Assembly: GCF_000008565.1 (NCBI RefSeq)
Contig: NC_001263.1
Coordinates: 1,057,360-1,089,359, forward strand
Length of the DNA stretch: 32,000 nucleotides
Direction of reading: 5' to 3'
Source of the DNA: Deinococcus radiodurans R1 = ATCC 13939 = DSM 20539
GTDB lineage: Bacteria > Deinococcota > Deinococci > Deinococcales > Deinococcaceae
This document shows, in pieces, positions 20,313 to 24,237 of the stretch (position 1 is its first letter; the number at the start of each line of letters is the position of its first letter). A model generated the notes under the pieces. The model ran no database searches, was not told the DNA's origin, and was given only the letters and a program-made list of their open reading frames with translations. A program made the translations under genes and the position numbers.

Positions 20313-20549
20313 TTAGCGGCGGGTGGTGGTCGTGGTGGTGTGCACGGTCGGGGCGGGCTGCTGACGGCCCAGGCCCAGCAGACCGGCGAGACCCAGCAGA
20401 CCGAGCCAGCCCCAGTCGAAGCCGCGCTTCTCGGTGGTGGTCGTGGTGGTGGTCTGGGTCGTGCCGGTGGTGTTGTTGGTGTCCTGGGCGGACGCCGCGA
20501 CAGGCAGCGCGAGGGCGGCGACGACGGCAACGGTCTTGAGCAGTTTCAT
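20313..20549 (-). CDS. small secreted Thr-rich protein with WGWLGLLGLAGLLGLG hydrophobic segment, 78 aa
   Basis: Signal peptide MKLLKTVAVVAALALPVAASA/Q. Poly-Thr tracts lie on both sides of a Gly/Leu-rich hydrophobic stretch. C-terminal RR. Confidence 0.75.
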   Translation of the reverse strand: MKLLKTVAVVAALALPVAASAQDTNNTTGTTQTTTTTTTEKRGFDWGWLGLLGLAGLLGLGRQQPAPTVHTTTTTTRR

Positions 20550-20665: not shown

Positions 20666-20694
20666 AAAAAAGCCGCCCCCAGGGGAGGAGGCGG
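20666..20694 (-). terminator. intrinsic terminator after hbd
   Basis: Minus strand reads CCGCCTCC-tcccct-GGGGGCGG-CTTTTTT (one G-U pair). Confidence 0.7.
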
Positions 20695-20727: not shown

Positions 20728-21564
<837 letters not shown>

Positions 21565-21590
21565 GGTTGCTCCTTTGAAATGTTGAATTC

Positions 21591-22022
21591 CTACGCTCTG
21601 CCGATTTGGTCTGCCAGCTTCCGTGCTTCCCGTGTGCCGATGACCAGCCGGGAGCCGTCGCTGAGGCGGACTTCCACATATTCTGCCTGCGGGCGCAGCG
21701 AGTAGAGCCAGCCGTCGCTCAGCAGGCGCACCCCCACGCCGAGGGGCGACGGGGCCGGCACCACGCGAACGCCCGCAATCGCCCCACGAGGAATTCGCCG
21801 GGTGAACAGGCCCGCGCCGAGGCTGACGCGCAGTTCGTCGGCAGTCAGGCGGACGCTCAGCCAACTCATGACCAACGTGACCGCGCCGAGCAGCATCAGC
21901 ATGACGGCTATCCCGGTCCTCTGCTCGGCGGACGCCTGACCCCAGACCACAGCGGCACACAGCAGGCTCAGGAGCGCGGCATAAGCCCACACGAGATCGT
22001 CACGCTGCTCGGCGTAGGTCAT
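21591..22022 (-). CDS. hypothetical membrane protein, 143 aa (2 TM plus small soluble domain)
   Basis: Two hydrophobic helices followed by ...ELRVSLG...[12 protein letters not shown].... GC3-rich. Confidence 0.7.
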
Positions 22023-22029
22023 GGTGACT

Positions 22030-22077
22030 CTACCAGCGGCACGCCGTCCGCCCTTTTCCGATGACTCCGAAGTTCAT
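22030..22077 (-). other. chimeric remnant: duplicated hbd 5' end fused to duplicated YciI-gene 3' end (15-codon ORF MNFGVIGKGRTACRW*)
   Basis: 22057..22077 matches 21544..21564 at 20/21. 22020..22049 matches 22715..22744 at 28/30. Confidence 0.6.
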
Positions 22078-22117
22078 TCGTATCGCTCCATTCAAAAGAA
22101 TGTGTTGTGCCCTTTCG

Positions 22118-22717
22118 TCAATTCAGCAACCTGACTTCTCCGTCTTCTATCCAGAGCGCCTGACCATCCCGCAGAAGACACAGAGGCCAGCGTTCCCCAT
22201 ACGTCCGGACCGTGTCAGCAATGGTTTCAATGGGGAACTGAGAAATGCTGCCCGAGGCGTGGGGAATGACCGCCAACTCTGTCAGGCCCAGACCGGTGTA
22301 GTCTTTTAAATCCGGCGCTATATCTGGAGAATCCATCAAGCTGACTGCTTCAATGGTTGGTCCAGCAACGACGGAGCCGGCGCTGCAACCGATATAAGGC
22401 AGCCCCTGCCGGACGCGCCGGGTGATGACTTTGTCCGACCCCGTTGATCTGAGGACTTGCAAGAGGTCGAAGGTTTCTCCTCCAGCGACGTAGACCCCAT
22501 CTACAGCATTCAGGGTCGTTTCGACTGCGGCCAGATCAGTGTGTGACAGGGGCAGGTTGATCAGCTCCAGCCCTTGTTTCTCCAGGCCCTCCCGCTCTTT
22601 TTGCACGAAGGGCGCGTCTGCATAGGAACGGGCGGCATCCGGGATGTACGCTACCCGTTTGCCCCCGATGAACTGCGCCATAGACGGATGCTGGAAGGAA
22701 GTCAGCAGAAGTCGCAT
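22118..22717 (-). CDS. peptidase S51 family (dipeptidase E-like), 199 aa
   Basis: ...[12 protein letters not shown]..., ...PYIGCSAGS... (nucleophile Ser context), ...IPHA.... Noticeably lower GC than the flanking genes. Confidence 0.85.
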
Positions 22718-22719
22718 GG

Positions 22720-23037
22720 TTACTCCACCAGCGGCACGCCGTCCAAGTCCAGCGCCCGGCCACGCTTGACCGGGGTGAACGGCATGTATGCGTACTCGGC
22801 AAAACCGCCCTGCACGAAGGGGTCGTCGCGGAACAGGTCGCGCAACTCCTGCTCGCTGTCGGCCCGGCAAATCAGGACGCCGCCGGTGCCATCGAGCTTA
22901 CGCCCGCTGGTCAGGAACACGCCGCTGCGGTAGTGCTGGTCGAGCCATTCGCGGTGCTTCGGCGTGGTGGCGTTCAGCTCGTCGCCGGTCTTGAGGTAGG
23001 TGCTGTGGACGACCCAGAGGGTAGGAGTTTCGCTCAT
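22720..23037 (-). CDS. YciI family protein, 105 aa
   Basis: ...HREWL...G.FL.SG...GG.L......E...L...DPF......EY... pattern of the YciI-like fold. Confidence 0.85.
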
Positions 23038-23055
23038 ACGCTCAGCCTAATCCCT

Positions 23056-24237
<1,182 letters not shown>

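Follow-up and report, generated by a model that had tools for sequence, protein, structure and literature searches.

Why should two unrelated genes that stand side by side in one operon share both the sequence at which they begin and the sequence at which they end? This question is raised by a locus of Deinococcus radiodurans R1 that lies in a stretch of 32,000 nucleotides of chromosome 1 (NC_001263.1, positions 1,057,360 to 1,089,359), referred to below as the window and numbered from its first letter. The operon is read from the minus strand and consists of thl, yciI, a gene for an S51 peptidase (P), a mini-open reading frame (mini-ORF) of 15 codons, a gene for a 143-aa membrane protein (M), hbd and a terminator. 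Between P and M, the first codons of hbd and the last codons of yciI are present a second time. We found that these repeated blocks are probably a scar, left where two alternative alleles of a single hypervariable locus had become connected head to tail.

The first block, J1 (GGACGGCGTGCCGCTGGTGGAGTAACCATG; 22715..22744), contains the last 7 codons of yciI and part of the codon before them, the stop, CC and the ATG of P. Its second copy, J1' (22020..22049), places the last 25 nt of yciI with the former stop, followed by CC and ATG, in front of M. The second block, J2, is the true start of hbd (codons 1–11, 21531..21564), and its copy J2' is located at 22044..22077, downstream of P. The initial annotation had reported the two J1 copies as matching at 28 of 30 positions and a shorter version of J2 (21544-21564 versus 22057-22077) at 20 of 21, and our repeat search and mismatch-tolerant search of the sequence returned the same figures. 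It had also described a weaker similarity beyond J2 on the Shine-Dalgarno (SD) side. This similarity does exist, but it amounts to GGAGC only, and the stronger extension of J2 runs the opposite way, into the hbd coding sequence, where ungapped similarity reaches codons 8–11 (28 of 34 matches, 21531-21564 versus 22044-22077). J2' is thus nearly perfect over codons 1–7 and degraded over codons 8–11. With J2' taken as its 21-nt core, the order on the minus strand is, as had been read before, yciI, J1, P, J2', 7 nt (22050-22056), J1', M, SD, J2 and hbd.

J1 and J2 were the two top direct-repeat families in the repeat search, and each occurred in exactly two copies in the window when 3 mismatches were allowed. 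In 100 dinucleotide-preserving shuffles, no match to either block was found even at 3 mismatches. The mismatch searches and shuffles showed that the blocks are no generic motif, a doubt that had been attached to them from the start. Both blocks do contain translation signals (GGAG, a stop codon and ATG), which could be taken to favor chance similarity or convergence on ribosome-binding or coupling signals. However, the number of 28/30 and 28/34 matches expected from the shuffles was zero, and the matches reach far into hbd codons on one side and yciI codons on the other, coding sequence that here lacks its proper context. An assembly artefact would be a further trivial explanation. The same five-gene order was found in the complete D. 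radiodurans genomes CP150840, CP031500, CP094462 and CP050116, in which the YciI and P sequences were exact. The arrangement of P, scar and M also occurred in three metagenomic contigs (L063, L060 and L061; loci are designated by L numbers), with protein identities of 97% for P and 91–98% for M and a nucleotide divergence of 2–6%. The arrangement, identical in independent complete genomes and present in diverged metagenomic strains, is no assembly artefact; chance, convergence and artefact together have next to no probability as an explanation of the repeats. These strains also give an indication of age. Nucleotide identity between L063 and D. radiodurans was 0.960 for thl, 0.956 for yciI, 0.968 for P, 0.981 for the scar and 0.942 for M, i.e., an even 94–98% per feature, with the 41-nt spacer that separates P from the scar as the one exception (88%). 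This evenness indicates that the stack predates the split of D. radiodurans and L063 and is older than approximately 4% divergence.

What were the units that became stacked? An alignment of YciI orthologues was scanned against one genome per species, which yielded 43 loci, and exact-protein look-ups added more, giving about 50 loci in total; thl, yciI, P, M and hbd were located in each by tblastn. The left conserved flank starts with thl, the first gene of the operon (acetyl-CoA acetyltransferase, or thiolase; 23056..24237, minus strand as are all features of the operon; Pfam Thiolase_N/Thiolase_C, E 1e-98/8e-47), the product of which showed 78–98% protein identity across all related loci. It is followed by the yciI-like gene (105 aa, 22720..23037; Pfam YCII, E 1e-17), whose conserved C-terminus, ending in DGVPLVE, supplies J1, including the GGAG that acts as SD for the next gene. 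The right conserved flank is hbd (3-hydroxyacyl-CoA dehydrogenase, 278 aa, 20728..21564; Pfam 3HCDH_N and 3HCDH), with 76–99% protein identity in related loci, and 3' of it a terminator-like hairpin with a T run (20673..20694) marks the end of the operon. Between these flanks are the upstream cassette P (S51 peptidase/PepE-like, 199 aa, 22118..22717; Pfam Peptidase_S51, E 3e-56) and the downstream cassette M (143 aa, 21591..22022), which has two hydrophobic N-terminal segments and a weak match to Pfam bPH_6 (bacterial PH-like) at E 6e-4, below the cut-off.

The initial annotation had proposed tandemization of two alternative yciI-X-hbd cassettes, and the relatives supported this proposal, since alleles with P alone and with M alone both exist. 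D. piscis (L029) has thl-yciI-P-hbd, with a P of 81% protein identity and the junction yciI-TGA-GT-ATG-P, and a metagenomic close relative (L059; yciI 91%, M 87%) has thl-yciI-M-hbd with the junction yciI-TGA-GC-ATG-M. The corresponding junctions of D. radiodurans are TAA-CC-ATG-P in J1 and TCA-CC-ATG-M in J1', and a distance of 2 nt from the stop codon, or former stop codon, to the ATG is common to all four. Besides, the sequence from the P stop through the spacer (22078..22117; GGAG, 8 nt, ATG) and J2' is collinear with the D. piscis sequence between the P stop and hbd, also in the unusual 8-nt spacer between SD and ATG, whereas the spacer from M to hbd (21565..21590) has AAGGAG, 5 nt and ATG. 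This collinearity indicates that J2' travelled with P, and the yciI-M junction of L059 shows that J1' and its ATG belong with M. The other early proposal, a duplicative insertion of the peptidase gene, describes the same event from the side of P and fits P as a compositionally foreign newcomer.

When all gaps between yciI and hbd were searched for internal copies of the locus' own hbd start or yciI end, such copies were found only in the D. radiodurans group and in L016, a metagenome-assembled genome (MAG) with a WapI-like gene and M. No duplicated junction was present in single-cassette loci. Among the fully readable gaps, an hbd 5' scar occurred in two-cassette loci only, and the contig L062, which ends approximately 105 nt upstream of the scar, also has an hbd 5' scar before M. 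An intrachromosomal origin was considered here, in which a segment from the yciI 3' end through M to the hbd 5' end was first duplicated in tandem by unequal crossing-over at GGCG and the upstream M was later replaced by P. A head-to-tail joint of segment ends is the classic signature of such a duplication, and the CC spacer present in both J1 and J1' is specific to the lineage. However, this history needs two rare steps; the replacement would need its left end precisely at the ATG and its right end within the 34-nt J2'; and the collinearity of the P-to-J2' spacer with a genuine P-hbd locus indicates that J2' came with P and is no copy of the resident hbd. We therefore regard it as quite improbable.

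How was the joint made? It is novel in that approximately 32 nt of the hbd start are followed directly by the last 21–25 nt of yciI. Alignment with L062, L016, L059 and hbd placed it at 22044..22053, where hbd (about +32) meets yciI (about −21 to −25), with GGCG or GGAYGG as the probable microhomology. The hbd sequence ending in CAGATGGGCGGCGG and the yciI sequence ending in CTGGACGGCGTGCC have GGCG in common (hbd +29 to +35, yciI −21 to −17), and the alignment changes over there; with the distal part of J2' degraded, the joint is placed to this interval and not to an exact nucleotide. The joint pattern GGAGTSATYGGAN{9,15}GGCGTGSYGYTRRTRRA had no matches in JGI metagenome contigs; the metagenomic contigs that proved informative were obtained by the exact-protein look-ups.

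We infer how the DNA entered, where exactly the joint was formed and in which order things happened as follows. An ancestor of the D. radiodurans lineage would have carried yciI-M-hbd. DNA of another Deinococcus with yciI-P-hbd would have entered the cell, most plausibly by natural transformation, without replacing M. A single illegitimate joint would have connected approximately codon 11 of the hbd of the P allele to a point about 7 codons before the end of the yciI of the M allele, at GGCG, and the rest would have been ordinary homologous recombination in the conserved flank, giving yciI-J1-P-J2'|J1'-M-J2-hbd. Each cassette would keep the same 5' and 3' junctions because each unit is a full “yciI end - cassette - hbd start”. 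As is established for this species, the cells are polyploid and take up DNA by natural transformation. Three routes could lead to the same product: homology-facilitated illegitimate recombination (HFIR) of the incoming DNA, single-crossover integration of a circularized fragment, and unequal crossing-over between P- and M-bearing chromosome copies of a polyploid cell after allelic replacement. Microhomology of 3–10 bp is typical of HFIR joints, but recipient DNA is usually lost in classical HFIR, and it is the integration of a circle by a single crossover that duplicates part of the homologous region (PMC3240628). A duplication without deletion is therefore better accommodated by circle integration or unequal crossing-over than by classical HFIR. 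The product should also be able to resolve. P would be lost by recombination of J1 with J1', which would give back a clean yciI-M junction, and M would be lost by recombination of J2' with J2, so that yciI-P-hbd remains.

Which cassette was there first? GC content at third codon positions (GC3) in D. radiodurans was 0.865 for thl, 0.887 for yciI, 0.812 for M and 0.839 for hbd, compared with 0.640 for P. P was similarly low in D. piscis (0.555 versus 0.76–0.83), as was the WapI-like gene of L016 (0.454 versus 0.79). P is compositionally foreign and M native-like. The nearest P homologues outside Deinococcus were found in Corynebacterium, Gordonia and other Mycobacteriales with 60–67% identity, which suggests that P was transferred between phyla. 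A further P homologue (L069, 74% identity) was considered as a clue to the donor and set aside; it sits outside any yciI-hbd locus. M formed 5 protein clusters in the whole database, and D. radiodurans was the sole named organism among them; of the other clusters, one was from a Deinococcus MAG and three were located beside a Deinococcus-like yciI or hbd. Besides, Deinococcus sp. VB343 and L064 still contain remnants of M or of the spacer downstream of it. On these grounds M was most likely resident in the clade first, with P as a later arrival.

In VB343 (L007:5319-5440), the gap contains only an internal M fragment (approximately residues 62–134, 40% identity) that begins directly after the yciI stop. 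As the remnant of a pseudogene, this fragment shows that the relative whose hbd is the most similar among carriers of M traces is losing M. M as the sole gap gene was seen in L059 and in L019, a MAG. In the latter, a 40-nt spacer before M was examined as a decayed J2' and rejected, the similarity being unconvincing.

Why should alternative alleles exist at this place at all? The order thl-yciI-...-hbd was kept throughout the loci and the gap content varied: it was empty, or held one, rarely two, of at least 7 unrelated small gene families. Approximately 17 species had an empty gap of 27–155 nt. A gene for a WapI-like immunity protein (Pfam PF24716, with E values as low as 4e-32), intact or decayed, was present in at least 13 loci including D. 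radiophilus; a family designated A (MYEAxF...WYTTA) in 3 loci; families C, D and E (the last of 108 aa) in 2 loci each; M alone in the two loci given above, and P alone in D. piscis. The search of families A, C, D, E and M against Pfam at E up to 10 and against NCBIfam gave only the sub-threshold bPH_6 for M. An identical YciI protein was found with two gap states in one metagenome series, in which L064–L067 were empty and L068 had a WapI-like gene, so that the gap varies between very close relatives, probably at the strain level. The yciI-hbd gap is a hypervariable, genus-wide hotspot for horizontally acquired genes to which no mobile element is attached.

This variability might also be attributed to a dedicated, integron-like system of site-specific recombination with J1 and J2 as its attachment sites. 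Many unrelated genes occupy one and the same position, with their starts at the yciI stop, and the two D. radiodurans cassettes are each bracketed by the same sequences. The starts of nearly all single cassettes were indeed −4 to +10 nt from the yciI stop (ATGA, GTGA and TGATG overlaps or 0–10 nt gaps). However, the 3' junctions differed in length and sequence between loci, single-cassette loci had no repeated site, and the blocks are merely the coding ends of yciI and hbd. The initial annotation had seen no integrase or transposase, and in agreement with this, no integrase or transposase domain was recorded (precomputed Pfam families) among the genes called in D. radiodurans up to approximately 4 kb away on both sides, and the cassettes consist of P, M, WapI-like genes or genes for uncharacterized small proteins. 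An integron cassette would differ further in its intI-type integrase and attI, neither of which was present in the same range, and a search of 21300-23100 for attC-like inverted repeats gave scattered chance-level pairs only, none of them bracketing the cassettes. With neither a recombinase nor attC-like inverted repeats in the ranges covered, an integron-like site was rejected, and the attachment-site explanation as a whole is very unlikely to be true.

The WapI-like gene was the commonest occupant of the gap (L015, L016, L018, L021, L037, L038, L050/L052, L055 and L068, and decayed in L020, L024 and L036). No toxin gene was found beside it within the yciI-hbd gap, and these genes appear to be orphan immunity genes inside the thiolase-hbd operon. 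Several copies were frameshifted or truncated. In addition, the family C cassette of L008 and the WapI cassette of L018 were each split into two ORFs by apparent frameshifts, indicating that cassettes at the yciI-hbd site decay as well as turn over.

The flanks of the gap were also informative. Identity of YciI to D. radiodurans was out of step with that of thl and hbd in L025, L019, L035 and L055. For example, D. taklimakanensis (L025) had 92.6% identity for thl and 96.0% for hbd and 64.8% for yciI; L019 had 93.5%, 94.0% and 67.6%, respectively; and D. radiophilus (L055) had 81.9% for thl, 91.4% for hbd and 86.7% for yciI. The locus therefore seems to be a mosaic, in which yciI alleles would have been exchanged between lineages together with the gap content. 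At hotspots without mobile elements, alleles are moved by homologous recombination in the flanks, and a mosaic is then expected (PMC5635113).

Does a joint of this kind occur elsewhere? Two further loci bear on this question. In L062, a metagenomic contig of 1.1 kb with an M of 83% identity, M is preceded by AGGAGG-N5-ATGAAATTCGGAGTCATTGGAGCAGAACAGAT|TGGCGTGCCGTTAATGGAATGA, in which the change from hbd start to yciI end lies within a few nucleotides (approximately 1–5) of its position in D. radiodurans. The first 105 nt of this contig (L062:1-105), upstream of the scar and M, are approximately 85% AT and are not P; they could be foreign DNA, as a very AT-rich cassette or spacer, or the contig could be chimeric. 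In L016, a 27-nt hbd start stands behind the WapI-like gene and is followed by an 11-nt linker and M (60% identical), which suggests the same joint with an 18-nt deletion.

These loci would also fit a different order of events, in which the joint is older than P and was formed once in an ancestor of the M-bearing lineages, with upstream cassettes swapped later by homologous recombination that used yciI/thl as the left arm and the 21–32-nt J2' as the right arm; equivalently, the scar and M would have hopped via J2' and hbd. The nearly identical position of the joint in L062, with AT-rich DNA in place of P, and the 27-nt hbd start and shortened linker before M behind a WapI-like gene in L016 are as expected from such a history. 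L062 and L016 also have ATTG in common where hbd has ATGG, and the J2' of D. radiodurans appears fresh over its first 21 nt and old over the distal 11–13 nt. In contrast, J1' has diverged from J1 at only 2 of 30 positions and shares with it the lineage-specific CC, compared with about 6 of 24 in the L062 copy. The scar-free L059 has an M (87%) closer to that of D. radiodurans than the M of L062 is, and the scar would have to have been lost there. Moreover, an arm of 21–32 nt is a poor substrate for homologous recombination, and the 1.1-kb L062 contig, ending in 85% AT, is possibly chimeric. An older joint is thus the less likely order of events, although the most serious of the alternatives, and it is a refinement of the head-to-tail joining of two alleles and does not contradict it.

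What did the scar do to the expression of M? Stacking puts M 95 nt from the nearest upstream stop codon, and no terminator-like site or sigma-70-like promoter was found between P and M. The 15-codon chimeric ORF that had been noticed early was confirmed at 22030..22077: it is preceded by GGAG, 8 nt and ATG, uses the hbd translation start, encodes MNFGVIGKGRTACRW and stops with TAG 7 nt before the ATG of M. Of the two changes from J1 to J1', one (GGTGGAG to GGTAGAG) destroyed the SD and created this TAG; the mini-ORF would otherwise overlap M by 23 nt. The other change was TAA to TCA. The mini-ORF stop codon was TAG in L063 and L060 and TAA in L061, at +7 nt to M in all of them. L062 had a mini-ORF of 17 codons, in frame with the yciI C-terminus, the TGA of which overlaps the M ATG as ATGA (−4), and L016 has two such ATGA overlaps, one of the WapI stop with the start codon of the mini-ORF and one of the mini-ORF stop with the start codon of M. 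Translational coupling is most efficient at −4 to +3 nt, persists to approximately +25 to +40 and is lost near −25 (PMC12548453), and the spacing from the mini-ORF stop to M (+7, or −4 in L062 and L016) was inside the efficient range. The RNA of the P-to-M linker folded no better than its shuffles (z = +1.5), and an unstructured linker makes reinitiation more plausible than RNA unfolding. On the same value, an RNA element in the linker was rejected. Statistics on the position of the mini-ORF were also rejected as strong evidence of selection, its geometry being partly built in. The captured ribosome-binding site and start of hbd would now relay ribosomes to M, whose own SD was mutated away; judged from this spacing, the mini-ORF probably relays translation into M, a conclusion that we hold with moderate confidence at best.

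Several observations weigh against the history proposed above, in whole or in part. The HFIR route is burdened by the product itself, in which no recipient DNA was deleted and yciI and hbd were duplicated over 30 and 34 nt, respectively. The distal 11–13 nt of J2' are far more diverged (5–6 mismatches) than the rest of J2' and than J1', and filler DNA may be present at the joint. No close relative with yciI-P-hbd was found; in D. piscis, the sole single-P locus, P has 81% identity and the junction has GT and not CC. The CC spacer is common to J1 and J1', which may mean that the donor was very close or that gene conversion homogenized the junctions later. The joints of L062 and L016 may mean that the joint is older than P and its upstream cassette was swapped, or that cassettes were stacked in front of M repeatedly, at one and the same microhomology. 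Sliding-window identity against L059, VB343, L064, L050 and L055 revealed no clean donor-tract boundary in thl-yciI, with a modest drop in identity to L059 from approximately L001:3790 onward. Finally, statistical support for coupling is weak: an ORF that enters J1' would stop beside the start of M in two of the three frames and be fused to M in the remaining one.

Head-to-tail joining of two alleles was also compared with known systems. The locus resembles the hotspots of horizontal gene transfer without mobile elements (PMC5635113) in that one interval between core genes holds different accessory genes in each genome, integrase and transposase are absent, and the flanks appear to be mosaic. 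The hotspot model has no stacking joint, and the D. radiodurans allele preserves an actual one. The yciI-hbd site is also unlike such hotspots in being tiny (one gene, rarely two), in lying inside an operon and in having cassette starts that abut the yciI stop. A naturally transformable host is a further likeness. With HFIR and circle integration (PMC3240628) the locus would share one homologous side and a probable microhomology joint on the other side; it shares a foreign insert, and integration of a circle gives short duplications. It differs in that the classical product has usually lost recipient DNA, whereas the yciI-hbd stack duplicates both flank ends; here the product is seen and not the process. 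In the orphan toxin/immunity modules of rhs and cdi loci (Koskiniemi et al. 2014, PMC3967940), a displaced cassette likewise keeps a fragment of the upstream gene, the homology of which permits resolution or rearrangement, and WapI-like immunity genes occupy the yciI-hbd site of other Deinococcus. However, yciI and hbd are metabolic or housekeeping genes and not toxin-delivery genes, the fragments are 30–34 nt and not hundreds of bp, P and M are no toxin-immunity pair, and a fragment of the downstream gene (hbd) is kept as well. Finally, the mini-ORF resembles the upstream ORFs of termination-reinitiation coupling (PMC12548453) in being equipped with an SD and an ATG and in ending close to the gene that follows, at +7 nt in D. 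radiodurans and with a 4-nt overlap in the related loci L062 and L016. Unlike an evolved leader peptide, it would be a recombination chimera of two gene ends, and the likeness is one of geometry.

In the literature searched, no description of the yciI-hbd locus was found. The process is a known kind of recombination; it represents no new mobile system and does not challenge current concepts. A broader interpretation would take the gap as a genus-wide, recombinase-free cassette site (an “integron without an integrase”) that holds mainly orphan immunity or resistance genes, possibly with M and P among this cargo, in a constitutively expressed metabolic operon, in which the ends of yciI and hbd serve as portable recombination arms for swapping, stacking and resolving cassettes and the hbd start is a selected expression relay. 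We consider this interpretation to be speculative and, on balance, improbable. The more immediate value of the locus is that gene-adding mechanisms at hotspots free of mobile elements have mostly been inferred statistically, and that D. radiodurans offers a readable joint. The joint shows alternative alleles combined rather than exchanged, with both parental-type alleles surviving in relatives. The scar may also have been reused, in that a fragment of a gene start became a mini-ORF positioned to drive the next gene. D. radiodurans is easy to manipulate genetically, and a small locus with conserved flanks in a tractable host should be convenient for studies of illegitimate recombination, cassette resolution and translational coupling. 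WapI-like immunity genes, which are frequent at the site in other Deinococcus species, may also interest the field of interbacterial antagonism.

Two minor observations concern other sequences at or near the locus. In cassette-free species, a long imperfect palindrome of GGGTCTAAG / CTTAGACCC units was found between yciI and hbd (L009, L013, L017, L023, L030, L032, L042 and L057), for which hairpins with energies between −25 and −57 kcal/mol were predicted. The unit was also present at other intergenic sites in several loci, which gives it the look of a dispersed repeat similar to repetitive extragenic palindromes; it was absent from the D. radiodurans window. Only the right arm of the palindrome was found downstream of M in the M-bearing or M-derived loci L007, L016, L019 and L064, and none in D. 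radiodurans, L059 and L062. The palindrome might be a cause of fragility of the site. Beyond the operon, an ORF of 78 aa (20313-20549, minus strand) had no Pfam match; it is publicly annotated as a gene, and its product has a signal-peptide-like N-terminus, a threonine run (TTQTTTTTTTEK) and a hydrophobic GLLGLAGLLGL tail.

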